64,000 bases of DNA from Candidatus Melainabacteria bacterium RIFCSPLOWO2_02_FULL_35_15 (GTDB lineage Bacteria > Cyanobacteriota > Vampirovibrionia > 2-02-FULL-35-15), in the NCBI GenBank assembly GCA_001784585.1, contig MFRN01000043.1:80966-144965 (forward strand), in the 5' to 3' direction. Every line of letters begins with the position of its first letter. Position 1 is the first letter of the stretch. This document shows, piece after piece, positions 3,935 through 54,176 of the stretch. The notes under the pieces are model-generated. The model worked only from the letters and a program-made list of their open reading frames with translations, was not told the origin of the DNA and did no database searches. A program made the position numbers and the translations under genes.

Positions 3935-4108
3935 ATTAGGCGCTGCCTTAGCTATGTTACTAAGTCTCATCTGACTAACTTACAAAGAAAGGTTTTGTCT
4001 GGTTTATCCAGCAAAACCTGAAAAATGACACAAAAGGCAGACTGCGAGCACTTTGCAAAGCCCGACAAGCGAGGTACGAAGCAAGGAGGGCGGTAGGCAA
4101 AAACTAAA

Positions 4109-5367: not shown

Positions 5368-6033
5368 ATGGCAAAATCAACCGCACAACATAGTAATGAG
5401 AAATCGGGTAGTTCTAAGTTACCGGAAGTTTTTTTAGGATTAAAACCTAACAAGCATTTATTACACTTATCAGTTTTAAGACAATTAGACAATCAGAGAG
5501 CCGGTACTGCTTCTACAAAGACCAAAGCCGAAGTCCGTGGTGGTGGTAAAAAACCCTGGAAACAAAAAGGTACAGGCAGAGCAAGAGCAGGATCAATCAG
5601 ATCACCTTTATGGGTTGGTGGTGGAATTACATTTGGTCCAAAGCCCAGAAGCTTTAAGTCTAATCTGCCTCAAAAAGCTAGAAATTTGGCAGAATTGCAG
5701 GCAATAGTGACAAAATCAGATTCACTGGTTATATTAAAAAATTTGCCTGAAATAAAAGACTGTAAGACAAAAAACTTTTTAAGCGCTATTAATTCCCTCT
5801 CACTAACTGATACCCCGCTTTTAATACTAGCTTCAAAAAAAGAGCAACATTTTAACGAAGCAAGGAGAGCATCAAAAAACATACCAGACATTGTTGTTCG
5901 TGACTGTAATTTTGCAGGTGTGTGGGATATCTTAAAAGTAAAAACCCTGGCAATTACAGAACATGCCTTAAAAGAGCTTGAGAAACGCTTTTTGTGGGTT
6001 TTAAAAAATAAAAAAATGAAAACCGGTAAATAA
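5368..6033 (+). CDS. rplD: 50S ribosomal protein L4
   Basis: GGGKKPWKQKGTGRARAGSIRSPLWVGGGITFGPKPR signature. Confidence 0.95.
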   Translation: MAKSTAQHSNEKSGSSKLPEVFLGLKPNKHLLHLSVLRQLDNQRAGTASTKTKAEVRGGGKKPWKQKGTGRARAGSIRSPLWVGGGITFGPKPRSFKSNLPQKARNLAELQAIVTKSDSLVILKNLPEIKDCKTKNFLSAINSLSLTDTPLLILASKKEQHFNEARRASKNIPDIVVRDCNFAGVWDILKVKTLAITEHALKELEKRFLWVLKNKKMKTGK

Positions 6034-6038
6034 AAAAA

Positions 6039-6329
6039 ATGAATAAAAATCTTACAAATATTTTAGAACCAATTATTACTGAAAAGAGTACTGCTTTAAG
6101 TAAGCAAAATAAATACACGTTTAAGGTTGTAAAGGATGCTACGAAAGATTCAATAAGAAAATCATTTCTTGAAATTTTTCCAGACAGAAAAATTACTTCA
6201 ATAAAAACATTAAAGATAAAAGGGCATTCAAAGCGTACAAAATCCGGTATAAAGTTTCCGGCAGATGGAAAAAAAGTAATTATTACAACTCTTGGTCCAA
6301 AGATAGAATATTTTCCTGATATAGGATAG
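6039..6329 (+). CDS. rplW: 50S ribosomal protein L23
   Basis: Size and position between rplD and rplB. Has an L23-like N-terminus (ILEPIITEKST). Confidence 0.9.
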   Translation: MNKNLTNILEPIITEKSTALSKQNKYTFKVVKDATKDSIRKSFLEIFPDRKITSIKTLKIKGHSKRTKSGIKFPADGKKVIITTLGPKIEYFPDIG

Positions 6330-6350
6330 ATAAGAAAGGAGGTAGATAAT

Positions 6351-7175
6351 ATGCCAGTAAAAGAAAGAAGACCTTTAACTCCCGGACAAAGAGGAATGAA
6401 CTTTATTGATTTTAGTGAAATTACAAAATCAAAACCCCAAAAAAGTTTACTTTTGCCTTATAAGAGAGGTTCAGGCAGAAATAACCAGGGAAGGATTACT
6501 ACCAGACATAAAGGTGGCGGTCATAAAAAACATTACAGAATAATTGATTACAAACGTGATAAAGACAATATCCAGGCAAAGGTAGTTGCTTTTGAATATG
6601 ATCCAAACAGAAACTGTAGAATTGCATTGTTGATTTACAAAGACGGAGAAAAGCGTTATATTCTGGCTCCAAATAATTTAAAAGTAAGCGACTCTGTAAT
6701 GTCCGGTGAAAGTGTTGAGCAAAAAGTCGGGAATTCGATGCCGCTTAGAAATATTACAGTAGGTGAATTCGTTCACAATGTAGAACTTAAGCCACATGCA
6801 GGAGGCCAGCTTGTAAGAACTGCTGGTGGTGCTGCACAACTTTTAGCCAAAGAAAATGAAGATGCTACGCTAAGATTACCCTCCGGTGAAATGAGAAGGG
6901 TTAATATTAACTGTCGTGCTACTCTTGGTCAGTTAGGAAACCTGGATCATTTAAATGTGAAGCTTGGAAAAGCAGGCAGAAAGCGTTATTTAGGTATTAG
7001 ACCTACTGTAAGAGGATCTGCCATGAATCCTGTAGATCATCCGCACGGTGGTGGAGAAGGCAGATGTCCAATTGGTGGTCAGCCAAAAACACCATGGGGC
7101 AAACCAGCAATGGGATTAAAAACCAGGAAGCCAAAGTTATCAGACAGATATATAATTTCAAGGAGGAAGAAGTAA
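6351..7175 (+). CDS. rplB: 50S ribosomal protein L2
   Basis: 274 aa. Motifs [22 protein letters not shown] and [14 protein letters not shown]. Confidence 0.97.
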
Positions 7176-7181
7176 AAAAGT

Positions 7182-7505
7182 ATGGGAAGATCACTAAAAA
7201 AAGGGCCTTATGTTCATCCTTCATTATTAAGAAAAATTAGTGAAATGAATAAATCAGGAAAGAAGCAAGTCGTAAAATCCTGGAAACGTGCTTCTATGAT
7301 TATCCCTGAAATGATTGGGCACACAATAGCTGTTCATAATGGAAAAAAGTTTGTACCTGTTTATATAACTGAACAAATGATAGGTCACAGGCTGGGAGAA
7401 TTTTCAGCTACAAGATATTTTAGAGCACATTCAGGAGTTGCTAAGAAAACTGAAGAAGCAGGGACAGAAGGAGGAAGTGCAGCACCAGCACCAAAATCTG
7501 CCTAA
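7182..7505 (+). CDS. rpsS: 30S ribosomal protein S19, with a C-terminal extension of about 15 aa
   Basis: [18 protein letters not shown] followed by [23 protein letters not shown]. Extra Gly/Ala/Pro-rich tail. Confidence 0.95.
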
Positions 7506-7575
7506 TGTTAATAGGAGGAAATAGGGAAACAGAGAAAGAGAGCAAAAATTTAAGCTTAAATTTTTGCAATAAAAC

Positions 7576-8076
7576 ATGACTAAAGCAATAGCAAAATATA
7601 TAAGAATGTCACCGCGAAAATTACGCCGTGTAGTAAATGAAATTCGTGGTAAGGATACTAACTCTGCACAGGTAATACTTAAGTTTATGCCTTATGCCGG
7701 AGCAAGGGTAGTTGAAAAAGTACTAAAGTCTGCAGTTTCAAATGCAAAAGAAAATGAAAAATTAAATCCTGACGAATTAAGAATTACTAAAGCTTTTGTA
7801 GATCAGTCTACTACTCTTAGAAGATGGAGACCAATGTCGCGTGGCAGGGGATATCCGATTTTAAAAAGAACAAGCCATGTGACTTTAGAAGTTGGTGTAG
7901 ATGAAAATCTTATTAATAACATCAAACATACTCCGGCTAAAAAACAAGTTAAGCATGATCATGACCACGATCACAAACATGATCACGATGAAAAGTCTAA
8001 AGATGAAGCTGTCAAGAAAGAAAAGAAACAAGTAAAAGAAAAAACAAAGAAAGATAAAAAGAAGAAAGAGGAATAA
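7576..8076 (+). CDS. rplV: 50S ribosomal protein L22, with a ~55-aa C-terminal His-Asp repeat and Lys-rich extension
   Basis: L22 core (ARYIRMSPRKLRRVVNEIRGK..) followed by KHDHDHDHKHDHDEKSKDEAVKKEKKQVKEKTKKDKKKKEE. Confidence 0.9.
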   Translation: MTKAIAKYIRMSPRKLRRVVNEIRGKDTNSAQVILKFMPYAGARVVEKVLKSAVSNAKENEKLNPDELRITKAFVDQSTTLRRWRPMSRGRGYPILKRTSHVTLEVGVDENLINNIKHTPAKKQVKHDHDHDHKHDHDEKSKDEAVKKEKKQVKEKTKKDKKKKEE

Positions 8077-8079
8077 GCA

Positions 8080-8817
8080 ATGGGTCAGAAGACACATCCC
8101 AGAGGATTTAGATTAGGTGTTATCCAAACATGGGATTCGCAATGGTTTGCAGCACCTAAAGATTATGCAAATCTTGTTTATGAAGACAAACTTATTCGTG
8201 ATTTTATAAAGGGAAAACTTTTTAATGCTGGCATCAGTAAGATTGAAATATGGAGAAAAGCACAATTAATTCAAGTCAATATTCATTCAGTAAGACCAGG
8301 TATTGTAGTTGGTAAAGGTGGACAAGGTTTAGAAACACTAAAGAATCAGGTTACAGAATTAATAAACAGAAAAGATATTATTGTTCAGATTAATGTAATT
8401 GAAGTTGCAAAAGCTGATCTTGATGCACAGTTAACCGCAGAAGCCATTGCACAACAGCTAGAAAGACGGGTAGCTTTTAGAAAAGCAATGAAACAGGCAA
8501 TGCAAAGAGCAATGCGCTCAGGTGCAAAGGGTGTAAAGGTAATGGTTTCCGGGCGCCTTGGTGGAAATGACATTGCCAGGACAGAATGGCTTAGAGAAGG
8601 AGCTATACCTCTTCATACTTTAAGAGCAGATATTGATTATGGACTTGCAACTGCAAAAACAATATTTGGAATTATTGGAGTGAAAACATGGATTTATAAA
8701 GGGATTCTTGCACCCGGTGAAGTAGCTCAAAGAAATGTTAAATTGGTTTCGAATCTTGATGGCGAAGAAGATGATACTCAGCAAAGAAGAAGAAGGAAAA
8801 AGAGAGGCGAACAGTAA
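8080..8817 (+). CDS. rpsC: 30S ribosomal protein S3
   Basis: [14 protein letters not shown]-terminus, KH domain, charged C-terminal tail. Confidence 0.95.
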
Positions 8818-8823
8818 AGAAAA

Positions 8824-9246
8824 ATGTTAGTGCCAAGACAGACAAAATTCAGGAAGCAAATGCGCGGCAGAATGACCGGAAAAGAGTCACGTGGTGTAAG
8901 ACTTCACTATGGTGAATATGGACTTCAGGCCCTGGCTCCAGCCTGGATTTCTTCAAAACAGCTGGAAGCAGCCAGAAAAGCTATGGTTAGGAGTATTAAA
9001 AGAGGTGGGAAAATTTGGATAATGGTTTTTCCGGATAAACCGGTTACTAAAAAACCTGCCGAGGTAAGAATGGGTTCTGGTAAAGGTAACCCTGAATTCT
9101 GGGTAACTGTTGTAAGACCAGGCCGAATCTTATTTGAAATGACAGGTGTTCCTAAAGATATTGCTGTTGAATCTTTGAGACTGGCATCTCATAAGCTTCC
9201 TATTAAGTGTCGAATTATAGAAAAGGGAGAGCATATTAAAGGATAA
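8824..9246 (+). CDS. rplP: 50S ribosomal protein L16
   Basis: [17 protein letters not shown]-terminus. Confidence 0.95.
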
Positions 9247-9249
9247 GTT

Positions 9250-9564
9250 ATGATGAAATTAGTTGAAATTAAAGAACTGCCAGTTGATGAGATTAGCGAT
9301 CAGCTAAAAAAATCACAACTAGAGCTTGTTAACCTAAAAATGAAATTTGCAAGCAGGCAGCTGGAAGATCCTTCTCAAATAAGAAAAAAAAGAAAGGAAA
9401 TTGCAAGGCTACATACTATAAAAACCCAAAAATTACATGAAGTTATCAGCGAACCTAAGACTGAAAAGGTTAAAAAAGTAAAAAAGAAAGTAGTAACTGA
9501 AACTTTTTCTAAATCTGAAAAGCCAAAACGTCAGACAAAGAAAAGGGGAAAACCGGAGACATAA
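9250..9564 (+). CDS. rpmC: 50S ribosomal protein L29, with a ~40-aa Lys-rich C-terminal extension
   Basis: The L29 core (ELxxLxxExxxLRF-like) occupies the first ~65 aa. The rest is a K/E-rich tail. Confidence 0.8.
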
Positions 9565-9565
9565 A

Positions 9566-9811
9566 ATGCCAAAGAAAGTTTTAAAGGGAAAGGTAGTAAG
9601 TGACAAAATGGATAAAACCATTGTTGTTGCCATTGAAAACAAACGACTTCATCCCAGGTATAAAAAACTTGTTTTAAAAACAAGAAAGTTTAAAGCACAT
9701 GATGAATCAAACCAGTGTAAAACAGGTGATGTGGTCGAAATCATAGAACATGTACCCATGAGCAAAACAAAAAGATGGTTACTGAAGGAGGTATTGGTGA
9801 AAGCTGACTAA
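9566..9811 (+). CDS. rpsQ: 30S ribosomal protein S17
   Basis: [29 protein letters not shown] pattern. Confidence 0.9.
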
Positions 9812-9840
9812 ACAAGATTTATTATGCTTTCATAATTAAA

Positions 9841-9868
9841 GGATTTGAGTGGTTTATCCACCAAATCC
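9841..9868 (+). promoter_or_regulatory. Hairpin element A (ggatttg-a-gtgg-TTTAT-ccac-caaatcc)
   Basis: 7+4 bp interrupted stem with a 5-nt loop. Second copy with compensatory stem changes at 3996-4023. Confidence 0.4.
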
Positions 9869-9887
9869 GATCAAACGTAAAGTAAGG

Positions 9888-9923
9888 ACGAAGGAAGCTT
9901 CAGCTTGTCTGAAGCTATAAAAA
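9888..9923 (+). promoter_or_regulatory. SD-hairpin-AUG leader module (GAAGG, then AAGCTTCAG-CTTGT-CTGAAGCT, then ATAAAAA, then ATG) upstream of rplN
   Basis: Read directly. One of four copies with a constant loop and co-varying stem. Confidence 0.55.
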
Positions 9924-10292
9924 ATGATACAACAAGAATCAAATTTAGAAGTAGCAGACAATACAGGCGCTAAAGCAGTGCGATGTATCAGAGTATTGAA
10001 AGGTGGTAATTCCCGCTATGCAGGAATTGGGGATTTGATTATTGGTGTGGTAAAAGATGCTCTTCCAAATATGCCTGTAAAAGAGCATGAAATTGTAAGA
10101 TGCGTAATAGTAAGGACTAAAAAGACTTTAAGCAGAAATGACGGAAGTAAAATCAGGTTTGATGAAAATGCAGTGGTAATTATTGATAAACAAAACAACC
10201 CTAGAGGCACACGTGTATTTGGTCCGGTAGCACGTGAATTAAGAGAAAAACAATTTATGAAAATTCTTTCTTTAGCACCGGAGGTTTTATAG
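9924..10292 (+). CDS. rplN: 50S ribosomal protein L14
   Basis: [18 protein letters not shown]-terminus. Confidence 0.97.
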
Positions 10293-10303
10293 AAAATTAA
10301 AAA

Positions 10304-10768
10304 ATGAGCGAGCAGTATATAAAAATAAATAGTAAAAATAAAAAACGCAGAGTTATTTTCTCCAAAGCACCTATTAAAGGACATCCTAAGAAAGGTGGCT
10401 TTTATATTGTCTCAGGTGCATTCCTTAAGAAAGATGCATCCAACCCAAGACCAAAATTACATATTAAAAGAGGTGATACTGTAATGATTATTTCCGGTCA
10501 GGACAAAGGAAAAACAGGTAAAGTAATTGCTGCATTTCCTCGTGAATCTAAAGTAATTATAGAAGGAGTAAATATAATTAAAAAACACCAGAAACCAAGA
10601 GGAGTTGGACAAGCTGGTGAAATTATTGAAAAAGAAGCTCCGATATTTGCATCAAAAGTAATGTACTATGATACGACGAAAAAAAAACCAACGAGAATTG
10701 GATATAAAATTTTAAAAGATGGGAAAAAGGTCAGGGTTTCAAAAGCTAGCGGGGAACAAATTGACTAA
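10304..10768 (+). CDS. rplX: 50S ribosomal protein L24, with an apparent N-terminal extension (start uncertain)
   Basis: KOW motif region [24 protein letters not shown] matches L24, preceded by ~50 extra basic residues in the longest ORF. Confidence 0.85.
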
Positions 10769-10773
10769 GTCTT

Positions 10774-11328
10774 TTGAGGTTAAATATGGCAAAAAATTTA
10801 AGAAAAGAATTTAAAACGAAAATTGCAAAAGACCTAATGAGCACATTAGGTTATAAAAATCAGCTTGAAGTTCCTATGCTAAAAAAGATTGTTGTAAATA
10901 TGGGTATGGGCGAAGCAATGTCCGATTCTAAGTATTTAGATAGTGGGCTTAATGACATGAAAACAATTACTGGTCAAAAGCCGCTAATTACAAGAGCAAA
11001 AAAATCTATTGCAACCTATAAAATCAGGGAAGGTGGCCCGGTTGGATGTATTGTTACTTTAAGAGGCCAAAGAATGTATGATTTCTTCAGTAAACTTGTG
11101 AATTTGGTACTACCCAGACTTAGGGATTTTAAAGGAGTTTCTCCAAAAAGCTTTGACGGGAGAGGAAGTTATAATTTAGGATTGAAGGAACAAATTGTTT
11201 TTCCTGAAATTAAATATGATAAGGTCGATAATGTAAGAGGAATGGATATTGCAATTGTTACAACTGCAAGGACAAATAAAGAGGGGCTGGAGCTTTTAAA
11301 AGCTTTAGGAATGCCTTTTAGGAAGTAG
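10774..11328 (+). CDS. rplE: 50S ribosomal protein L5
   Basis: L5 family motifs (..VPMLKKIVVNMG.. and ..RGMDIAIVTTA..). Confidence 0.95.
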   Translation: MRLNMAKNLRKEFKTKIAKDLMSTLGYKNQLEVPMLKKIVVNMGMGEAMSDSKYLDSGLNDMKTITGQKPLITRAKKSIATYKIREGGPVGCIVTLRGQRMYDFFSKLVNLVLPRLRDFKGVSPKSFDGRGSYNLGLKEQIVFPEIKYDKVDNVRGMDIAIVTTARTNKEGLELLKALGMPFRK

Positions 11329-11356
11329 TTTATGGGAAGTAATAAATTTATCACCT

Positions 11357-11428
11357 GCGGGTGTAATTCAGTGGTAGAATGCAAGCTTCCCAAGCTTGAC
11401 GTCGCGGGTTCAAATCCCGTCGCCCGCT
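11357..11428 (+). tRNA. tRNA-Gly (anticodon CCC)
   Basis: Cloverleaf read by hand. Acceptor stem GCGGGTG/CGCCCGC with discriminator U. Anticodon stem CAAGC/GCTTG with loop TTCCCAA. T-loop GGTTCAAATCC. Lies between rplE and rpsZ. Confidence 0.85.
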
Positions 11429-11547
11429 CATTTTTGCGGAGCAAAATGAGCGAGGTCCGCTCAGCATAGCTGAGCGACCCGCTATCCAGAGTCAGTGGTT
11501 AGTGGTCAGAAGTTAGAAGGAAACAAGGAGATAAGTTAAATAAAAAT

Positions 11548-11754
11548 ATGGCTAAATTATGCATGATTGAGAGAGAAAGGAAAAAAAGAATATTAGTCGC
11601 AAAAGGTAAATATCCTAAAATAGGACTTCATAACCGTTGCAGGAGCTGTGGCAGATCACGTGGTTATTATAGAGACTTTGGGCTTTGCAGACTATGTCTA
11701 AGAAAAATGGCACACATGGGATTATTGCCTGGTGTAACAAAAGCCAGCTGGTAG
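11548..11754 (+). CDS. rpsZ: 30S ribosomal protein S14, zinc-binding type Z
   Basis: [38 protein letters not shown]. The C4 zinc ribbon and the KASW end are typical of S14 type Z. Confidence 0.9.
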
Positions 11755-11783
11755 AGAAAAAAGAAGAGGTAAGGAAACAAAAA

Positions 11784-12185
11784 ATGTCTCATACAGATTC
11801 AATAAGTGATATGTTAACAAGGATTAGAAATGCAGTTCATGCAACACATGAAAGTGTTGAAATTCCATTATCCAAATTAAAAATACAGATTGCAGAAGTT
11901 TTGAAAAAAGAAGGATACATTAGTTCTTATGAACTTTTTGAATCAGATCCTGTAAAAAAGAATATTAAAGTATTTTTAAAATATGGTCCACGAGGTGAAA
12001 AGTTAATTACAGGAATTCAAAAAGTTTCCAAGCCGGGTTTAAGAGTTTATACAAAATCAAAAGATGCAAAAAGAGTTCTGGATGGTCTGGGAATTTATAT
12101 TATTAGTACAAGCAGGGGCCTAATGACTGATCGACAGGCCAGGAAAGAAAAAGTTGGAGGAGAAGTTCTTTGTAAGGTCTGGTAA
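11784..12185 (+). CDS. rpsH: 30S ribosomal protein S8
   Basis: [18 protein letters not shown]-terminus. The track ORF starts upstream at 11685 and overlaps rpsZ. The internal ATG at 11784 is in the same frame and gives a canonical 133-aa S8. Confidence 0.9.
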
Positions 12186-12209
12186 GTTAGAGATCAGAGG
12201 AAATAAAAT

Positions 12210-12770
12210 ATGTCGAGAATAGGAAAAAATCCAATAAACATACCGGATAAAGTAGAAATTACTATTACTGATACTCTTGGCGGACAAATCGTTAGAGTTA
12301 AAGGCCCTAAGGGTGAGCTCGAAAGCAAGTTTAGAAAAGAAATTAAAATTACTAAAGAAGACAAAAAAATTATTTTTAACAGGGAAAATGATGAAAAATT
12401 AGTAAGAAGTCTTCATGGTTTAATCAGATCATTAGTACAAAATATGATTCTTGGCGTTACAGAAGGATTTAAAAAAGAATTAGATATTGTAGGTGTAGGT
12501 TATAAAGCTCAGCTTCAGGGGACAAAACTGGTTTTACAAATGGGGTACAGTCATCCGGTTGAAGTTACTCCTCCAAACAAAGAAACAAAAATTGAAGTAG
12601 ATAAAACCCAGACTCACCTTACCATTACTGGAATCAGCAAGCAGACTGTCGGGGACTTAGCTGCTTATATCAGATCTGTTAGATTTCCTGAACCGTATAA
12701 AGGTAAAGGCATTAAGTATTCTGATGAAAAAATCAGAAGAAAGGTTGGAAAATCTGCTGCCAAAAAATAG
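12210..12770 (+). CDS. rplF: 50S ribosomal protein L6
   Basis: MSRIGKNPI N-terminus. Two-domain L6 pattern. Confidence 0.95.
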   Translation: MSRIGKNPINIPDKVEITITDTLGGQIVRVKGPKGELESKFRKEIKITKEDKKIIFNRENDEKLVRSLHGLIRSLVQNMILGVTEGFKKELDIVGVGYKAQLQGTKLVLQMGYSHPVEVTPPNKETKIEVDKTQTHLTITGISKQTVGDLAAYIRSVRFPEPYKGKGIKYSDEKIRRKVGKSAAKK

Positions 12771-12785
12771 GCTAAGGATAAATCA

Positions 12786-13154
12786 ATGATAAATCAAACT
12801 TTAAAAAAAGAAAGAACAAGGAAAAGACACCAGAGAATTAGAAATAAGATTATGGGAACCAAGGAACGCCCAAGACTTTGTATTTATAAATCTAATAAGC
12901 ATATTTATGCTCAGTTAATTGATGATGTTGAAGCAAAGACTTTGCTGTTCTGCTCTACAGTTCAACCATCTTTAAGGTCAAAGATTAAATCAACCTGGAC
13001 AAAAGAAGCAGCTAAGATAGTTGGAGAAATGATTGCTAAAAGTGCTACAGAGAAAGGAATTAAAGATGTTGTATTCGATCGCGGCGGTAACAGATATCAT
13101 GGTAAAGTTATAGCTTTTGCAGAAGGAGCAAGAGGTGCGGGTTTAAAATTTTAG
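12786..13154 (+). CDS. rplR: 50S ribosomal protein L18
   Basis: ..RPRLCIYKSNKHIYAQLIDD.. and C-terminal DRGGNRYHGKV. Confidence 0.9.
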   Translation: MINQTLKKERTRKRHQRIRNKIMGTKERPRLCIYKSNKHIYAQLIDDVEAKTLLFCSTVQPSLRSKIKSTWTKEAAKIVGEMIAKSATEKGIKDVVFDRGGNRYHGKVIAFAEGARGAGLKF

Positions 13155-13175
13155 AAACTTATTAGAGAGGGAAAT

Positions 13176-13946
13176 ATGTCAGAAGAAGAAGAAGAAAAAA
13201 AAGAAGTTAATATTAATGAAGAAAAACAGATTTCTTCAGAAAGTACAGAACAGATAACTGTTCCAGAAACTTCAGAACCAGTGAAAGTTGCTGATGCTAC
13301 TGATGTTCCTGCTTCAGCTGAAGCTGAGGAAGATGAAGTCGATGAACTAACTGGTATTGAAGAGGCTTCTGAACAGGAAATATTCCAAAAAGTTACAAAA
13401 AAAGAAACCAGAAAAAAAAGAAAAAAGCGTAGTGAAAGAGGTCAGGATAAAGGTAAAGAAGCCTCTGAATGGATTGAAAAAGTTGTTCAGATTAGAAGAG
13501 TTACCAAGGTTGTAAAGGGGGGTAAAAAATTAAGTTTTAGAGCAGTTGTTGTAGTTGGGAATGCTAAAGGGCAGGTAGGCGTAGGAGTTGGTAAAGCACT
13601 TGAAGTTATAAGTGCTATTCAAAAAGCTGTTGTTGATGCAAAGAAAAATTTAATTCCAATTCCACTTATAAATTCCACTATTCCTCATCAGATTCTTGGT
13701 AGAGCAGGTGCTGCAAAAGTTCTCTTAAAACCTGCCAGAGAAGGTACTGGTATAAAAGCAGGTGGAGCTGCCAGAACAGTTCTTGAGTTAGGTGGAGTAG
13801 GTGACATTCTTTCAAAGTCATTAGGTTCACGTTCACCATTGAATGTAGCCAGAGCAACACTTAATGGTTTAACCAAGCTTAGACAATTTGGAGGTGTTGC
13901 ACAGCTTAGAGGAATGACTTTAAAAGAAATGATAGCAGCAAATTAG
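13176..13946 (+). CDS. rpsE: 30S ribosomal protein S5, with an ~85-aa acidic N-terminal extension
   Basis: S5 core (..[21 protein letters not shown]..) preceded by an E/D-rich low-complexity region ([22 protein letters not shown]..). Confidence 0.9.
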
Positions 13947-13955
13947 ATATAACAG

Positions 13956-14444
13956 GTGGTAGGGATTATGCAGTTAAGTGAATTAAAATCAGCTAAGGGT
14001 TCAAGAAGAAAAAGAAAAACTGTAGGTCGTGGTCCGGGTTCTGGTCATGGTAAGACTTCCTGCAGAGGAAATAATGGTCAGGGGCAAAGAGCAGGAAAAG
14101 GTCACAGAGCTGGTTTTGAAGGTGGTCAAACCCCAATCTACAGAAGACTTCCAAAATATCAGGTAAATGAGAGACCAAACAGATTAATATGGGCAGTTGT
14201 AAATCTAAAGGATTTGGAAGATCTTTCAGGTTCTAAGGTTATAACTCCGGAATTGCTTTTAGAAAAAAGCATAATAGATAATTTAAATGCTGGCTTAAGA
14301 GTCCTGGGAGACGGTAATATAAATTTTTCTGCTACTATAAAAGCACATTATTTTTCACATTCAGCAAAAGAAAAGATTGAAGCAGCTGGCGGTAAATGTG
14401 AATTAATAAATAACACTAAGGACAATGGCAAATCAGGCAAGTAA
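13956..14444 (+). CDS. rplO: 50S ribosomal protein L15
   Basis: L15 N-terminal pattern. Directly follows rpsE, with no rpmD (L30) gene in between. Confidence 0.9.
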   Translation: MVGIMQLSELKSAKGSRRKRKTVGRGPGSGHGKTSCRGNNGQGQRAGKGHRAGFEGGQTPIYRRLPKYQVNERPNRLIWAVVNLKDLEDLSGSKVITPELLLEKSIIDNLNAGLRVLGDGNINFSATIKAHYFSHSAKEKIEAAGGKCELINNTKDNGKSGK

Positions 14445-15888
14445 ATCAGGTAAAGAAGCAGATCTTTCGACATTTTTAGAAATGTTCCAGTCTGCTGGCT
14501 TAATGAAAAGAATAGTTTTTACTATTTCTATGCTGGCTATTTACAGACTTGGTGTTCACATACCTTTAATAGGTGTTAACCATGAGCTTTTAAAGAGATC
14601 AAATGTTTTAACAAGTGGTCTTTTAGGACTGGTAGATTTATTTGCCGGTGGTGCTCTTAGTGCACTGTCTATATTCGCACTTGGTATTGGCCCTTATATT
14701 ACATCTTCCATTATTATGCAGTTAATGACTGAAGTAATTCCAGCTCTAAAAAATATACAGAGAGAACAGGGTGAGCAGGGAAGAAAACAATTTCAGCAAA
14801 TTACACGGAGAACTACAGTAGCACTGGCAATTATTCAGTCACTTGCTTTAGCCAGATTCCTGGATGTAGCAGGTGTTGCCCCGGCTGGAACACCGGCATT
14901 TTATTTAAATACTATTGTTATACTTACCTGCTCAAGTGTTTTTGTTATGTGGCTCGGAGAAGTCATTACTGAGCGTGGTATCGGGAACGGTGCTTCTATA
15001 TTGATTTTTATAGGGATTGCCTCGAGAATGCCTATTATGATTAGAGATACAATTACTGCTATGAATACAGGTTCGTCTCCTGCCTGGGGCGTTGCCACAT
15101 TGTTGCTTGTGTTCTGTTTGCTTGTATTTTTAATAATTTATATTCAGGAGGGTGCGAGAAAGATTTTAGTATTAGGTGCCAGGAGGCAAGCAGCTGGCGG
15201 GAGAGTAACTGCAGCACCGGATCACTATATGCCATTTAGAATTAATCCTGCAGGTGTTTTGCCTATTATTTTTGCAAGCTCTTTAATGTTCCTTCCATTA
15301 CAGCTTCTTGCTTTTGCAGGTCTTCAGGATAAATCTGTTTCAATTACTTTACGAGATCTCTTTACAAATACCCCGGGACTTGGTCAGCTTTCATTTGCAC
15401 TCTCGCAGATCAAAGTAGGAGAGAGTTATATTTTTGCTGATTTTGGAAACTGGCTGTCACTCCAGGTTGAATATCTCTTTAGAACCGGGCACTGGCAACA
15501 TTCACTGGTTTATTTCTTTTTAATTCTTTTATTTTCATATTTTTATGCTTCGATAATTTTAAATCCGCGTGAAGTAGCAGAAAACCTGAAAAAAAACGGA
15601 TCTGCCATTCAGGGTGTTAAACCAGGGAAAGCAACCAGTGATTACCTCGATATTGTAATTAACCGGATAGTTTTTGTCGGTGCCATTGCGATTGGACTTG
15701 TGGCTGTAATTCCAATCCATGTAGAACAATTATGCCAGGTAGCAACTCTTGGTGGTTTGGGAAGCACTTCACTTATAATTCTTGTAGGGGTTGCTATAGA
15801 TACCAGAAACCAGATTATTGCATATGCTCAAACTCACAGATATCAAACAAGGAGCATTTTAAGTTTTTCGTCTAAGAAAACCTTATGA
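14425..15888 (+). CDS. secY: Preprotein translocase subunit SecY
   Basis: About 10 TM helices. SecY motifs (..GIMPYITASIIMQL..-like IGPYITSSIIMQLM). Confidence 0.95.
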   Translation: MANQASKSGKEADLSTFLEMFQSAGLMKRIVFTISMLAIYRLGVHIPLIGVNHELLKRSNVLTSGLLGLVDLFAGGALSALSIFALGIGPYITSSIIMQLMTEVIPALKNIQREQGEQGRKQFQQITRRTTVALAIIQSLALARFLDVAGVAPAGTPAFYLNTIVILTCSSVFVMWLGEVITERGIGNGASILIFIGIASRMPIMIRDTITAMNTGSSPAWGVATLLLVFCLLVFLIIYIQEGARKILVLGARRQAAGGRVTAAPDHYMPFRINPAGVLPIIFASSLMFLPLQLLAFAGLQDKSVSITLRDLFTNTPGLGQLSFALSQIKVGESYIFADFGNWLSLQVEYLFRTGHWQHSLVYFFLILLFSYFYASIILNPREVAENLKKNGSAIQGVKPGKATSDYLDIVINRIVFVGAIAIGLVAVIPIHVEQLCQVATLGGLGSTSLIILVGVAIDTRNQIIAYAQTHRYQTRSILSFSSKKTL

Positions 15889-16676
15889 GTTTTGTTGAAA
15901 AAATAAATAGTAGATTTTCCGACAAACTGTTTCAAATTAATAATTTTATTTATACCCTGGTAGTAAATTTGCTGGATGCATTTTTTATAATTTTTAGAGA
16001 TTTGCCGCGGGGTAAGTTTTATTATGAAAATTTTCTTGAGAGCTTAAGAAAAATCGCCTGGAACTGTCTGCCCATTGCTACGCTTACTATATCTGCAAGT
16101 GCTTTTATTTACTCTATTCATGGTGCTCCTGAAATGTCAAAAAGAGGTTTAACTGATTATTTAGGCGGGCTTGTGGCACTGGCGTTAATTCGTGAAAGTG
16201 TCCCTGTTATGGCAGCACTGGCAATTGTTTCCCAGTATTCATCTGGTATGACTGCTCAGATAGGTTCTATGAAGGTAACCGAACAATTAGATGCCATGAA
16301 AGTTTTAAAAGTTTATCCCAGTGCATACTTGCTTGTACCTATGTTGTTAGCAGGCTTAATTGGTTTTCCGATTGTAATCATGATTTGTATTTTAGTAGGG
16401 ATATTTATAAATTATCTGGTTTCAAATGTATTAATTGATATCAGTTATCATCTTTATTTTTCATCAATTTTAAGAGCTGTAGTTATGAAGGATATTTTCC
16501 TTGCATTGATTAAAGCATCCATGTTCGGATTTTTTATTGCTTTAATAAGTTATATTTGTGGCATTCTTACTCAGGGCGGAGCTAAAGCAGTTGGAAATTC
16601 TACCAGGCTCTCAGTAGTGATTAATTTTATTTTAGTAGTAATTCTGGATTATATAATTACAGCGTTGTGGTTATAG
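15885..16676 (+). CDS. MlaE/Ttg2B-family ABC transporter permease (lipid-trafficking-type permease)
   Basis: 263 aa, multi-TM, with a conserved MlaE-like core (..LIRESVPVMAALAIVSQYSSGMTAQIGSMKVTEQLDAMKVLKVYP..). Overlaps the secY stop by 4 nt. Confidence 0.75.
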   Translation: MSFVEKINSRFSDKLFQINNFIYTLVVNLLDAFFIIFRDLPRGKFYYENFLESLRKIAWNCLPIATLTISASAFIYSIHGAPEMSKRGLTDYLGGLVALALIRESVPVMAALAIVSQYSSGMTAQIGSMKVTEQLDAMKVLKVYPSAYLLVPMLLAGLIGFPIVIMICILVGIFINYLVSNVLIDISYHLYFSSILRAVVMKDIFLALIKASMFGFFIALISYICGILTQGGAKAVGNSTRLSVVINFILVVILDYIITALWL

Positions 16677-17350: not shown

Positions 17351-17676
17351 AATTTTAGTTCTATATCTACTCCGGCAGGTAAGTCTAATCTGGTCAGAGC
17401 ATCTGTAGTTTCATTTGTCGGATTTTCAATGTCAACAAGTCTCTTATGAATCCTGATTTCAAAATGTTCTCTGGATTTTTTATCTACATGTGGAGATCTG
17501 TTTACACAATAGATATGACGATCTGTCGGTAGATAAATAGGACCTGTTATAGATGCACCTGTACGGTTAGCTGCATCTACAATCTGATCACATGAAGCAT
17601 CTAATGCTCTATGATCGTATCCTTTTAAGCGAATACGAATCCTGTTTTTCAGAGATTGTTGTGCTGTTTTTGACAT
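17347..17676 (-). CDS. rpsJ: 30S ribosomal protein S10
   Basis: ..[21 protein letters not shown].. S10 signature. Confidence 0.95.
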
Positions 17677-17712
17677 TTTTTATAGCTCCAGACAAGCTGG
17701 AGCTTTCCTCTC
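17677..17712 (-). promoter_or_regulatory. SD-hairpin-AUG leader module upstream of rpsJ (minus strand: GAGG, AAAGCTCCAG-CTTGT-CTGGAGCT, ATAAAAA, ATG)
   Basis: Reverse complement of 17677-17712 read directly. Same module as at rplN, accB and the acyl-CoA synthetase gene. Confidence 0.55.
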
Positions 17713-17780
17713 GATCTTCCTTTGTGATTGATCACATTTGCCGAATGAATCGGACAAATGCTCTCTCTTTAATAAGCATA

Positions 17781-28672: not shown

Positions 28673-28705
28673 AATGGAGGCAGCTTGTCTGGAGCGAAAT
28701 AAAAA
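28673..28705 (+). promoter_or_regulatory. SD-hairpin-AUG leader module (shortened copy: GGAGG, CAG-CTTGT-CTGGAGC, GAAATAAAAA, ATG) upstream of accB
   Basis: Read directly. Same conserved CAGCTTGTCTG core as the other three copies. Confidence 0.45.
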
Positions 28706-29146
28706 ATGAAATTGCCATGGGAAGAGATAGAAGAATTAACCAAATACCTTAGAGAAAAAGGTCTTAGTGAGATTACCATTGAAACAAAAGATGGAAAAAT
28801 TACCGTTAAAAAAGATGCACAGGGAGTAATAAAATCATCTGCCATATCTTCGCAGGAAAGTTCTCAGAAACATAACACTGCAGAACCAGAGACACAAAAA
28901 TCAAAATACTATGAGGTAACTTCTCCAATGGTTGGTACTTTTTATGTATCTTCAAGCCCCGGAGCAGAACCATTTGTAAAAACCGGATCAAAGATAAAAA
29001 CAGGAGATGTCTTGTGTATTATAGAAGCTATGAAAATAATGAATGAGCTGCCTGCTGAAGTAAGCGGTACAGTTAAGGAGATTCTTGTGAAAGACAACCA
29101 AACTGTTGAATATGGACAAGTATTAATGAGACTTGATACAAAATAA
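28706..29146 (+). CDS. accB: Biotin carboxyl carrier protein of acetyl-CoA carboxylase
   Basis: Biotinyl-lysine motif CIIEAMKIMNEL. ~146 aa. Confidence 0.9.
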   Translation: MKLPWEEIEELTKYLREKGLSEITIETKDGKITVKKDAQGVIKSSAISSQESSQKHNTAEPETQKSKYYEVTSPMVGTFYVSSSPGAEPFVKTGSKIKTGDVLCIIEAMKIMNELPAEVSGTVKEILVKDNQTVEYGQVLMRLDTK

Positions 29147-33138: not shown

Positions 33139-33257
33139 TCCTTGGTGAGGATGCGGCTGGATCACACTCGTTCCCATTCCGAACACGACAGTAAAGACAG
33201 CTAGCAGTGACAATATTTAGATCGCAAGGTCTTGAGAAGATAACCATTCGCCAGGGA
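33139..33257 (+). rRNA. rrf: 5S ribosomal RNA (orphan copy, no adjacent 16S/23S)
   Basis: ~119 nt. The terminal helix I pairs (tccttggtg with cgccaggga). Internal conserved CCCATTCCGAACACG..GTAAAG loop-C region. Own promoter upstream and an intrinsic terminator downstream. Confidence 0.75.
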
Positions 33258-51687: not shown

Positions 51688-52205
51688 TACTGAATCTCGA
51701 TTGAGTCTTTATTATCGACTTCTGAAAGGCAAACCCTTATTGATTGTTTTGGTGTGGTGGAAATATTTTTACCGGTAAAATCTGCACTGATAGGCAGCCT
51801 TCTGTGCCCTCTGTCCACAAGAACAAGTAATTTTACACTTGTCGGTCTGCCAAAATCTTTTATAGCATCCAGGGCAGCCCTTACAGTTCTGCCTTCATAT
51901 AAGACATCATCGACTATTAGTACATTTTTATTATCTATATTAGGAACAGTGCTAGGTTTACTTTGTTTTAGAGACTTTCTGTGATCTAAATCATCTCTGT
52001 AAAGAGTTACATCTAAATAACCAAATGGTATATCTACTTTTTCTATTTGCAGGATGATATCGTGCAGTCTTTTTGCCAGGAATTCTCCTCTGGTTACAAT
52101 ACCTACAATTACAAGGTTATTTAAATCTACATAGTTTTCTATTACCTCATGAGCTAATCTTCTTAAGGTTTTTGTTAGTTCGTTACTGTCCAGTAATACG
52201 TTCAT
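51687..52205 (-). CDS. pyrR: Bifunctional pyrimidine operon regulator / uracil phosphoribosyltransferase PyrR
   Basis: 172 aa. PRT-fold motif VLIVDDVLYEGRTVRAALDAI. PyrR-like N-terminus. Confidence 0.85.
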   Translation of the reverse strand: MNVLLDSNELTKTLRRLAHEVIENYVDLNNLVIVGIVTRGEFLAKRLHDIILQIEKVDIPFGYLDVTLYRDDLDHRKSLKQSKPSTVPNIDNKNVLIVDDVLYEGRTVRAALDAIKDFGRPTSVKLLVLVDRGHRRLPISADFTGKNISTTPKQSIRVCLSEVDNKDSIEIQ

Positions 52206-52320
52206 TTTGTAGCCTAATTTAGCAACTAATCAGCTAGAATTATATAATCATTATGATGTTTTGTGTAATAAAACTGATCACTAATATATGATTTTGTACT
52301 TGTAATTATCGGAATTGACC

Positions 52321-52355
52321 GACGGAAGCTGCAGCTTGTCTGCAGCATTAAAAAA
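52321..52355 (+). promoter_or_regulatory. SD-hairpin-AUG leader module (GACGGAAG, CTGCAG-CTTGT-CTGCAGC, ATTAAAAAA, ATG) upstream of the acyl-CoA synthetase gene
   Basis: Read directly. Fourth copy of the conserved module. Confidence 0.5.
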
Positions 52356-54176
52356 ATGATACCAAAGAACATACCGAATCTTTTTATAGAACAGGCCAAT
52401 AAGTACAGTGAAAAAACAGCAGTTGAGTACAGATTAAGGCGTAATCAGCCATATAAAAGTATTTCCTGGACACATTTAAGTACTATCGTGCAGGAGGTAG
52501 CATATGGGTTAATTGAGCTTGGAGTTAAAAAAGGTGACAATGTTGCGATTTTATCCGGCACAAGATATGAATGGTCTGTTTTTGATTTAGCACTTTTGTC
52601 TATTGGTGCTGTTGTTGTACCTATATATCCCAGCTTACCTGAGCACAGTGTAAATTATATTTTAAATGATTCAATGAGTAAGATTATAATCCTCGAAGAC
52701 AAAGGACAGCTTCAAAAAATCAGATCACAGTGGGATAGTGTACCACAAGTTCGATATGCAATTGTAATTGAAGATCTTGGAGATCTGCCTCAATATGATC
52801 CCAGAATAATAAGTTTTAAAAATTTAAAAGACAAGGGCAAATTAAATTTTGCAGGTGATCCGGATTTGTTTGAAAGGCATCTTGCTGATATACGTGAAAA
52901 CGATCTCGCTTCAATAATTTATACATCCGGTACTACAGGCCCGCCAAAAGGAGTAATGCTTACCCATAAAAATATTTTAAGTGTTATATCTGTTCTTCCT
53001 GAGGTGTTGCCTATGAAACCATCTGACAAGTTTCTTTCTTTTTTACCTCTTTCTCATGTTTTTGAGAGAGTAGGAGGCCTTCATTATGCTGTTTCAACAG
53101 CTGTTACCATCTGTTACTGCTCAAGTATTGATCAAATAGGACCTGCTCTTAAAGATTCCGGTGCAACAATAATGTTAGTCGTTCCGAGGATACTTGAAAA
53201 AATCATAACAAAAATAAACCATGAACTTGAAGCTCTGCCTCCTTTTAAAAAAAATCTGTTTGCCCAGGCAATATCCTGCGGCAGGAAATTATTAGAGTTA
53301 AAAGAAAATAAAAAAAAATGTACATTTGATTTTTTCATTAATTCAGTTAAATATTTTTTTGCTGACAAATTTGTTTTTTCTTCAGTTCGTAAAAAGCTTG
53401 CACCAGAATTAAAACGTTTTGTATCTGGCGGTGCACCCCTTGCAAAAGAAATTGCAGAGTTTTTTTGTATTATTGGAATACCGGTACTTGAAGGTTATGG
53501 TTTAACTGAGACCAGTGCTCCTGCTACAGTAAACACTTTAAAACAAATGAAAATTGGCACTGTCGGAAAACCACTGCCAAATGTACAAATTAAAATTGCT
53601 GATGATGGTGAAATATTAATTAAGGGTCCAAATGTGTTTTGTGGTTATTACAAGGATGAAAAGGCAACAAAAGACTCTTTTGCAGACAACTGGTTTCTTA
53701 CCGGTGATATAGGAAGTATTGACAATGATGGATTTTTAAAAATTACAGGAAGAAAGAAAGATATAATTGTAAACTCTGCCGGAAAAAATATTGCTCCTCA
53801 AAATATTGAAAATGCCATAAGAAACTCACCATACATTAGCAATGTGGTAGTAATAGGAGACAAGAAAAAATATTTATCGGCACTGGTAACCCTGGAGCCA
53901 TCTTCAATATTAAATTACGCAAAGGAGTATAATTTATTTTTGGATAATGGAATGGAGAGCTTGGCAAAAGAGCCAAATGTTATTAAGTTAATAGATAAAG
54001 AAATTAAAATCAGAACTGCGGAATTTGCTGATTATGAACAAATCAGAAAGTTTACTGTTTTTCCTCAGGATTTTAGTATTGAATCAGGCGAGATTACACC
54101 TACTTTAAAAATCAAAAGAAAATTTATTGAGGAGAAGTATAAAAAAATAATTGATGATATGTATCCGACAGAATAA
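52356..54176 (+). CDS. Long-chain fatty acid-CoA ligase (AMP-binding superfamily)
   Basis: AMP-binding motif IYTSGTTGPPKGVMLTH. ..GYGLTET.. and ..TGDIG.. motifs. 606 aa. Confidence 0.9.
   Translation: MIPKNIPNLFIEQANKYSEKTAVEYRLRRNQPYKSISWTHLSTIVQEVAYGLIELGVKKGDNVAILSGTRYEWSVFDLALLSIGAVVVPIYPSLPEHSVNYILNDSMSKIIILEDKGQLQKIRSQWDSVPQVRYAIVIEDLGDLPQYDPRIISFKNLKDKGKLNFAGDPDLFERHLADIRENDLASIIYTSGTTGPPKGVMLTHKNILSVISVLPEVLPMKPSDKFLSFLPLSHVFERVGGLHYAVSTAVTICYCSSIDQIGPALKDSGATIMLVVPRILEKIITKINHELEALPPFKKNLFAQAISCGRKLLELKENKKKCTFDFFINSVKYFFADKFVFSSVRKKLAPELKRFVSGGAPLAKEIAEFFCIIGIPVLEGYGLTETSAPATVNTLKQMKIGTVGKPLPNVQIKIADDGEILIKGPNVFCGYYKDEKATKDSFADNWFLTGDIGSIDNDGFLKITGRKKDIIVNSAGKNIAPQNIENAIRNSPYISNVVVIGDKKKYLSALVTLEPSSILNYAKEYNLFLDNGMESLAKEPNVIKLIDKEIKIRTAEFADYEQIRKFTVFPQDFSIESGEITPTLKIKRKFIEEKYKKIIDDMYPTE

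Follow-up and report, generated by a model that had tools for sequence, protein, structure and literature searches.

What is the short hairpin that lies directly upstream of the start codon of an acyl-CoA synthetase-like gene in a Melainabacteria genome, and does it take part in starting translation? The gene is located in a stretch of 64,000 nucleotides (nt) from Candidatus Melainabacteria bacterium RIFCSPLOWO2_02_FULL_35_15 (assembly GCA_001784585.1, contig MFRN01000043.1, positions 80,966 to 144,965 of the forward strand); this entire stretch is referred to below as ‘the window’, and coordinates are those of the window unless another locus is named. Melainabacteria are the non-photosynthetic sister group of the cyanobacteria, and to our knowledge almost nothing is known of their gene expression. 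A prior inspection of the window's letters (the ‘sequence-only reading’) had described positions 52321–52358 as a module composed of a Shine-Dalgarno (SD) element, a hairpin and an AUG, had pointed to the same leader before accB and the ribosomal-protein operons, and had taken this as a hint of a shared post-transcriptional regulon.

The window reads GACGGAAG CTGCAG CTTGT CTGCAGC ATTAAAAAA ATG at 52321–52358, in agreement with that description letter for letter. The stem of the hairpin (designated P2; coordinates of this and other features are collected in Table 1) comprises 7 basepairs (bp), since the G that ends ‘GGAAG’ is the partner of the final C. P2 has a minimum free energy (MFE) of −11.5 kcal/mol (z = −2.4). 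Both the MFE and the centroid structure of the entire predicted leader retain it, with the AUG region unpaired. A predicted promoter should place the hairpin within a 5′ untranslated region (UTR) of ∼100 nt.

The nhmmer match at this locus covers profile positions 46–89 only, and the covariance model (CM) alignment skips an upstream hairpin (P1) and extends over the 3′ half of the module only. The orthologous region on metagenome contig L130 (∼80% identity), in which the −10 region of the predicted promoter (TAGAATTATATAATCATTATGA) is identical, contains a complete module. Pairwise alignment with that contig indicates a ∼40-nt deletion in the window copy, with P1 and the 5′ half of the linker gone, and P2 in L130 (GCUCCAG/CUGGAGC) differs from that in the window by a compensatory swap of a G-C for a C-G pair. 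Judged from these alignments, the leader of the acyl-CoA synthetase gene is the surviving 3′ half of a two-hairpin module of ∼90 nt; the SD-hairpin-AUG arrangement, which had been taken for the whole unit, is its 3′ part.

The complete module consists, in order, of P1, a purine-rich linker of ∼30 nt, the sequence GGAA, P2 and an A-rich tail. P1 is an 11-bp hairpin with a bulged U (GGAUUUG-U-CCGr) and the loop UUUAU, the linker reads CCGAUC..GAAAGGaAUUGAc.GAa, and the tail (of the type UAUAAAAA) directly follows P2. The first ∼6 bases of the tail are conserved as UAUAAA, including in copies that precede tRNAs. To collect the family, one genome per species was scanned with the seed GRARGC-NNN-AGCTTGTCT-NNN-GC, which returned 114 loci, 33 of them from metagenome-assembled genomes (MAGs) of ‘Candidatus Melainabacteria’ or Caenarcanales. 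All three free positions were complementary in 34 of 35 Melainabacteria hits versus 6 of ∼80 hits in other taxa; those seed hits outside Melainabacteria look like chance matches. A metagenome scan with a stricter pattern contributed 111 further loci, and a profile search over all collected loci gave 183 matches, 164 of them full length and 151 unique. The sources of the 151 unique full copies are Melainabacteria MAGs and metagenome contigs of unspecified origin, and no copies were found in viral contigs. With seed matches excluded, the fetched DNA contains approximately one copy per 25 kb, which by extrapolation gives some 100 copies per genome. The hosts belong to a low-GC Melainabacteria (Vampirovibrionia) lineage, and the module is specific to that lineage.

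P2 and its tail behave as a separable sub-module, as indicated by units that lack P1. At the related locus L018 (3349–3472), a P2 whose stem and closing pair are different (CCACCAA-CUUGU-UUGGUGG) is followed at once by a P1-less P2 unit. Tandem or P2-only units are also present in L024, L114, L178 and L185.

The stem structure of the module is under selection. In a CM-derived alignment of 112 distinct copies, pairing was observed in 98.0% of the relevant cells, versus 83.1% in shuffles and at most 47% with slid partners. Double changes were found in 15 of the 18 pairs of that alignment, and the total of 299 double-change cells compares with 77.5 ± 7.1 in shuffles, none of 500 of which reached 299. 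RNAalifold, applied to an independent MAFFT alignment of 39 copies, recovered exactly the two helices P1 and P2, and 14 of the 18 pairs showed compensatory changes. All of 150 copies have CTTGT as the P2 loop, and the P2 stem occurs in at least 25 variants, with 1032 of 1050 pairs being Watson-Crick. Conservation of the hairpin therefore exceeds chance, its covariation across genomes is very strong, and the compensatory substitutions by which a structured cis-acting RNA element is recognized are present.

Two additional pairings were rejected: a third helix that would join the conserved 5′ flank (CAAUU) to the linker (AAUUG), for which complementarity to a copy's own partner (5.42) did not exceed that to shuffled partners (5.57), and a pairing of the P1 loop with the tail (UUUAU with AUAAA), for which loop variants showed no covariation by eye.

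Thirteen copies within a single MAG share a mean identity of only 68% (range 49–85%). In the orthologues of rplN, rpsJ, accB and the acyl-CoA synthetase gene, the leader contains a module at the equivalent place, and compensatory differences distinguish the copies. This low identity within a MAG, together with the orthologous positions, indicates that the family is old and has been maintained in place, rather than resulting from a recent burst of transposition.

We examined the genomic context of 157 unique P2-bearing copies. The majority (97, or 62%) are located 3–32 nt before the start of an open reading frame (ORF) on the same strand, with a mode of 8 nt; 64 of these have tails of at most 13 nt. 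Four copies precede same-strand tRNAs by 8–16 nt, between six and eight face the 3′ end of a convergent tRNA at a distance of 12–15 nt, and eight face the stop codon of a convergent ORF at 1–16 nt; overall, ∼10% of copies adjoin tRNAs and 5% adjoin convergent gene ends. The remainder are associated with tiny ORFs, terminator-like hairpins or tandem P2 copies. Among 141 copies for which the upstream side was analyzed, 67 have the end of a same-strand ORF within 250 nt (43 of these within 50 nt), and a further 37 have a divergent gene upstream; both operon-internal and promoter-proximal positions therefore occur. The head-on arrangement with a convergent tRNA, which recurs with a constant gap of 12–15 nt (L009 2425–2590, L020 7526–7942, L041 5732–5896, L140 ∼1050–1146 and others), is poorly explained by any model of the module. 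L020 also contains a 249-bp tandem duplication of the module and a partial tRNA-Ala.

The downstream genes display no functional enrichment: 95 proteins match 155 Pfam families, with examples including Dus, KAS, AMP-binding, S10, BCCP, SOD, NarH, GDP-mannose dehydratase and RibD. This diversity, along with the tRNA and convergent contexts, speaks against the proposed regulon and against any specificity of the module for ribosomal and lipid genes; the module looks instead like a signal of general use in gene expression.

The distance from P2 to the start codon is related to the presence of an SD-like motif (defined as GGAG, GAGG or AGGA). None of the 64 short tails (≤13 nt) contains such a motif, versus 14 of the 17 tails of at least 19 nt; the background among module-less ATG genes of the window is 16 of 44 (∼36%), from which both classes differ (Fisher p = 8e-8 for short and 0.0016 for long tails). 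A closely spaced P2 and an SD motif are thus mutually exclusive. In those genes of the window that possess an SD motif, it is mostly positioned 8–10 nt from the ATG. The pattern across these sequences suggests that a start codon 8–13 nt from P2 needs no conventional SD, and that more distant starts do. This relation between tail length and SD motif favors a translation-initiation cassette.

We therefore tentatively prefer the explanation, to which we assign a probability of roughly 40%, that P2 and its tail form a cassette in the transcribed leader and support initiation independently of an SD. The module would be transcribed within 5′ UTRs and intercistronic spacers; the acyl-CoA synthetase copy would be transcribed from the sigma-70-like promoter ∼100 nt upstream. 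P2, as a stable hairpin of fixed sequence, would keep a short A-rich stretch before the AUG (7–13 nt in such a cassette) single-stranded, and would occupy the distance from the AUG at which an SD helix would otherwise be found, and the downstream cistron would start translation in the absence of a conventional SD. Since the loop and the GGAA flank do not vary, a factor acting in trans could plausibly recognize them in all copies. P1 and the linker would correspond to a separable 5′ sub-module, possibly acting as a 5′-end stabilizer or standby region; at the acyl-CoA synthetase locus P1 is deleted and P2 retained. The sequences show the anatomy of the module, its conservation, covariation and placement, and its mutual exclusion with SD motifs; we infer that it acts as RNA and promotes or controls initiation, and that a factor acting on it in trans may exist.

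Several observations weigh against this explanation. The absence of SD motifs from short tails is partly forced, since the conserved UAUAAA leaves little room for one, and SD-less genes with A-rich regions at −1 to −10 are common among the module-less genes of the window. Approximately 10% of copies, in tRNA or convergent contexts, are unrelated to translation, and in some cases a terminator-like hairpin comes directly after the copy. Among ∼2700 pairs, 30 G-U pairs (1.1%) and 21 A-C mismatches (0.8%) were counted, with no significant asymmetry between them, so that the transcribed strand, and a structure in RNA as opposed to single-stranded DNA, are unproven by sequence. Such near-exclusive Watson-Crick pairing is atypical of RNA families, and a constraint at the level of DNA or on both strands would give this pattern. 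Finally, processing or end protection, which we rank second, accounts better for the copies that are orphan, convergent or adjacent to tRNAs.

According to that second explanation, which we consider doubtful, the module is a site of RNA processing or ‘punctuation’: an endonuclease would cut in or near the A/U-rich tail or the linker and thereby separate RNAs, with P2 serving as the protective 3′ hairpin of the upstream product, P1 as a protective 5′ hairpin, and any effect on translation being secondary. One mechanism would then cover intercistronic, tRNA-adjacent, orphan and convergent copies alike. The 43 copies that follow a same-strand stop by no more than 50 nt, a module located in the tRNA-Arg/tRNA-Leu spacer of L054, and the window copies placed exactly at the tuf/rpsJ and rpsQ/rplN boundaries are all consistent with it, as is the retention of UAUAAA even before tRNAs. 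We identified no known nuclease recognition motif in the module, however, and its hairpins are too short for RNase III; processing alone would also leave the sharp 8-nt spacing to the AUG and the exclusion of SD motifs unexplained. A more far-reaching reading, in which GGAA-P2(CUUGU) is a lineage-wide operator bound by one protein or RNA factor on ∼100 transcripts, or in which P2 docks in the 30S platform and replaces the SD:anti-SD helix, appears to us unlikely. As an operator it would jointly set the translation or processing of ribosomal-protein operons, tRNA precursors, fatty-acid synthesis and many housekeeping genes, and would resemble a bacterial counterpart of IRE- or TOP-type control (IRE, iron-responsive element); 30S docking would amount to a new class of initiation signal. 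Taken literally, the SD-hairpin-AUG module of the sequence-only reading would be a split SD, in which GGAA(G) would pair with the 3′ tail of 16S rRNA and the hairpin would shorten the distance to the AUG, and we find this somewhat less probable still. A purine-rich GGAA is always found beside P2, short-tail copies lack any other SD and long-tail copies gain one, and the linear distance of 27–31 nt from GGAA to the AUG would be reduced by folding of P2 to 8–12 nt of single strand plus the end-to-end width of one helix, a geometry that would permit the 5–10 nt usual for an SD. GGAA can form three pairs (GGA) with the canonical CCUCC tail, and AAGGAA, present in about a third of copies, five potential pairs, where an SD-led start calls for at least 4–5 nt of complementarity. 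The stronger SD version GGAGGC is nevertheless absent from all 35 Melainabacteria hits of a search that permitted it, ∼10% of copies contain GAAAGC, a sequence incapable of acting as an SD, any of the four bases (A, U, G or C) may stand immediately 5′ of GGAA, and the G and C of GGAAGC lie within the stem. GGAAGC also varies just as little in copies next to tRNAs and convergent genes, a comparison that is biased by the search pattern. The stem of the proposed SD-hairpin-AUG module covaries as a functional single-stranded structure should, and the exclusion of SD motifs from short tails is compatible with a role in initiation; its SD component is weak.

Explanations at the level of DNA or transcription fare less well. 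A selfish repeat (REP/BIME-, MITE- or PATE-like) that forms hairpins in single-stranded DNA, and whose location at gene starts is a by-product of insertion preference, would account for a multi-copy and strictly intergenic element, for the nearly pure Watson-Crick pairing with G-U no commoner than A-C, and for orphan, tandem or convergent copies; the bulged T in P1 is likewise a feature of the end hairpins of IS200/IS605 elements. Its probability is nonetheless low in our estimation, and membership among MITE or REP elements was rejected: copies within a genome are too divergent, the ends of the module (AAAGGATTTG... and ...GCTATAAAAA) are not inverted repeats, P1 and P2 have unrelated sequences, no copies were found in phages or viruses, orientation and spacing are strongly biased toward start codons, and copies persist at orthologous loci with compensatory changes. 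The sequence-only reading had named a generic repeat as the finding that would count against it; the element is indeed generic and multi-copy, but its conservation at orthologous positions and its compensatory evolution set it apart from a meaningless repeat. Least probable of all, and by our estimate very improbable, is a promoter or terminator-promoter junction in which P1 terminates transcription and the TTGAC of the linker and the TATAAA of the tail serve as promoter boxes. The module does precede mRNA and tRNA genes at classical operon boundaries, TTGAC occurs in about half of the linkers and TATAAA in most tails, and good −10 boxes ending 5 nt before P1 are enriched (14 of 144 copies versus a background of 2.3), which would place the transcription start at the first base of P1 in ∼10% of copies. 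The TTGACC and TATAAA sequences are separated by 26 nt, however, where 16–18 bp are needed; no sigma-70 promoter was detected within the module, scans placing promoters upstream of it only, with ordinary promoters at variable distances (for the acyl-CoA synthetase copy and others). Were the −10 box in the tail, transcription would begin at or past the true ATG, and a leaderless-mRNA design, with such a box and a transcription start at the ATG, was rejected because tails of 7–8 nt are too short. No rho-independent terminator was found at the three window copies, where P2 is followed by UAUAAAAA and P1 by CCGAUC; an intrinsic terminator was rejected for either strand, since neither hairpin is followed by a U-tract and the T-run on the opposite strand precedes the hairpin. 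Covariation of the stems would also be unexpected for protein-recognized duplex DNA.

The module belongs to none of the families against which it was compared. In Rfam 15 at gathering thresholds, the whole window yielded only two tRNAs and a 5S rRNA; at E ≤ 10, the regions 9780–9960 and 52200–52400 gave chance matches to small nucleolar and long non-coding RNAs far below threshold. A search of 18 related loci gave tRNAs only. A literature search for an earlier description of a Melainabacteria motif or of a split SD found nothing usable. The architecture, high copy number, use before both SD-less ORFs and tRNAs, and restriction to one lineage were not found described in Rfam 15 or in the literature searched. 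The general kind to which it belongs, a conserved structured leader or intergenic hairpin, is familiar.

Among known systems, the module works most like a hairpin-bridged ribosome-binding site or a shared operator or insulator hairpin. In hairpin-bridged (‘split’) ribosome-binding sites, those of phage T4 genes 38 and 25, a hairpin shortens the distance between SD and AUG. As in the module, a stable hairpin is interposed between a purine-rich element and an AUG that follows the stem by a few nucleotides; the T4 sites contain a genuine SD and serve single genes, whereas the module has a poor SD, GGAA(GC), occurs ∼100 times per genome, also adjoins tRNAs and comprises two hairpins. Operator hairpins, such as the iron-responsive element and the phage coat-protein/replicase operator, share an invariant loop or flank, a freely covarying stem and a position near the starts of many mRNAs; the module differs in that its targets have no common function and some copies have no adjacent ORF. 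Ribosomal-protein leaders (S10/L4, L10 and L20 in Rfam) are comparable in that the module is found in the leader of the rpsJ operon and before rplN. It matches none of them in Rfam at E ≤ 10, and the ∼100 unrelated genes downstream indicate that it is not an autoregulatory mimic of the rRNA site of one ribosomal protein. REP/BIME, ERIC, Correia/NEMIS and MITE sequences are also multi-copy, intergenic, hairpin-forming and ∼100 nt in length; the fixed orientation of the module, its 8–12-nt spacing to starts, orthologous compensatory retention, low identity within a genome and lack of terminal inverted repeats distinguish it from them. Lastly, ompA- and ermC-type 5′ hairpins, T7 RNase III sites, chloroplast intercistronic protein-binding sites and mitochondrial tRNA punctuation are all structured elements at cistron boundaries, and the module could similarly define RNA ends and free the initiation region downstream. 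Those stabilizers and processing sites are individual or heterogeneous, whereas the module is one conserved sequence family.

The family provides at least 150 independent examples of a structured element with very strong covariation and no Rfam counterpart, placed in stereotyped fashion 8–12 nt before SD-less starts. If it does act as an SD substitute or common operator, it would represent a new way to standardize or co-regulate initiation on ∼3% of genes, and a natural analogue of the synthetic ‘insulator’ parts placed upstream of ribosome-binding sites. Even as a processing signal, it would be a directly testable RNA motif, for which a CM and mutational predictions are available. For annotators, it serves as a warning that the ∼110-nt spacers that bear the module are not empty.

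Additional copies of the module are present in the window. The pattern GGAAGCNNNNGCTTGTCNNNNGC occurs at three sites, versus 0.63 expected: at 9893 (before rplN), at 17707 on the minus strand (before rpsJ) and at 52324. Their three variable stem pairs are compensated (TTC/GAA, TCC/GGA and TGC/GCA, respectively). A looser pattern adds a fourth site, before accB (ATG at 28706). Orthologues of rplN and rpsJ (L142 and L122) carry full modules that differ from those of the window by several compensatory changes in P1. The accB copy (28677–28695) has lost P1, and the 5′ arm of its P2 now reads GAGGCAG; it forms no hairpin (−3.6 kcal/mol, z = 0.04), and the deletion generated a GGAGG 24 nt from the ATG. 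The leaders of accB orthologues in L105 and L128 contain a full module. Two of the four window copies (accB and acyl-CoA synthetase) are therefore decaying relative to their orthologues. The idea of a shared leader holds for rplN, rpsJ and the acyl-CoA synthetase gene, each of which has a folded hairpin and an A-rich tail before its start codon; for accB it holds in the orthologues, and in this genome a non-folding relic is all that is left.

Table 1. Module copies, their parts and associated features in the window
Feature	Position	Strand	Description and evidence
Predicted sigma-70-type promoter, TTAGCA-18-TATAAT	52219..52248	+	Consensus scan, 10/12 matches
Remnant linker ATTGACCGAC and GGAA	52311..52327	+	nhmmer, CM, L130 alignment
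P2 hairpin	52328..52346	+	7-bp stem GCUGCAG/CUGCAGC (arms 52328-52334 and 52340-52346), pentaloop CUUGU; folding and family-wide covariation
A-rich single-stranded tail AUUAAAAAA	52347..52355	+	9 nt, from P2 to AUG, without SD
Acyl-CoA synthetase-like gene	52356..54176	+	606-aa AMP-binding enzyme, ORF from ATG 52356; Pfam PF00501 (1e-80) and PF23562; domains AMP-binding and AMP-binding_C_3
Full module before rplN	9832..9929	+	CM R1 101.7 bits; Pfam Ribosomal_L14
Parts of rplN module	P1 9841-9868; linker 9869-9892; GGAA 9893-9896; P2 9897-9915; tail 9916-9923; ATG 9924	+	
Full module between tuf and rpsJ	17671..17770	-	CM R1 85.3 bits; Pfam Ribosomal_S10, EF-Tu
Parts of rpsJ module	P1 17761-17734; P2 17703-17685; tail 17684-17677; ATG 17676	-	
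Degenerate accB copy	28677..28705	+	Loop, 3′ arm and tail kept (CAGCTTGTCTGGAGC GAAATAAAAA); CM 21.9 bits

The S10 cluster in which two of these copies reside is split and inverted, with tuf-rpsJ-rplC on the minus strand (18995–16682) and rplD-rplW-...-rpsQ-rplN... on the plus strand (5368–16676), beginning ∼11 kb away; no module is present upstream of rplD in the window. A tRNA-Gly(CCC) gene (11357–11429, plus strand) is located in the spc ribosomal-protein cluster between rplE (10774–11328) and rpsH (11685–12185). A lone 5S rRNA gene is found at 33141–33256 (plus strand), and the 64-kb window contains no 23S or 16S rRNA gene.

A second leader family (‘type B’) is represented in the window at 3986–4100 (plus strand), where it faces a convergent glycosyltransferase gene. 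The region had been considered as an antisense partner RNA of the module, since its GACAAGC is complementary to the P2 loop and closing pair; the match may be chance, and this role was rejected because the region is itself a member of a multi-copy family of leaders, the heptamer is missing from one homologue, and a match of seven bases is weak evidence. Type B gave no Rfam match even at E ≤ 10. Further copies are located at L107 506–622, L114 2615–2730, L211 2263–2381 and L151 4382–4495, and on the minus strand at L161 276–166 and L183 8400–8282; in other genomes the element lies 3–13 nt before diverse ORFs (M16 peptidase-like, permease-like and epimerase). It has a P1-like hairpin (GGUUUUG...CAAAACC) that is followed by UGAAUAAUG, resembling an extended −10 box, and then by the strongly conserved core GCACUUUGCAAAGCCYGACAAGCGAAGAAUGAGCGAGGAGGGCGGUAGG. 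Its GCCY/RGGC helix covaries (C-G, U-A and U-G), and we regard type B as a candidate new riboswitch-like or leader RNA.

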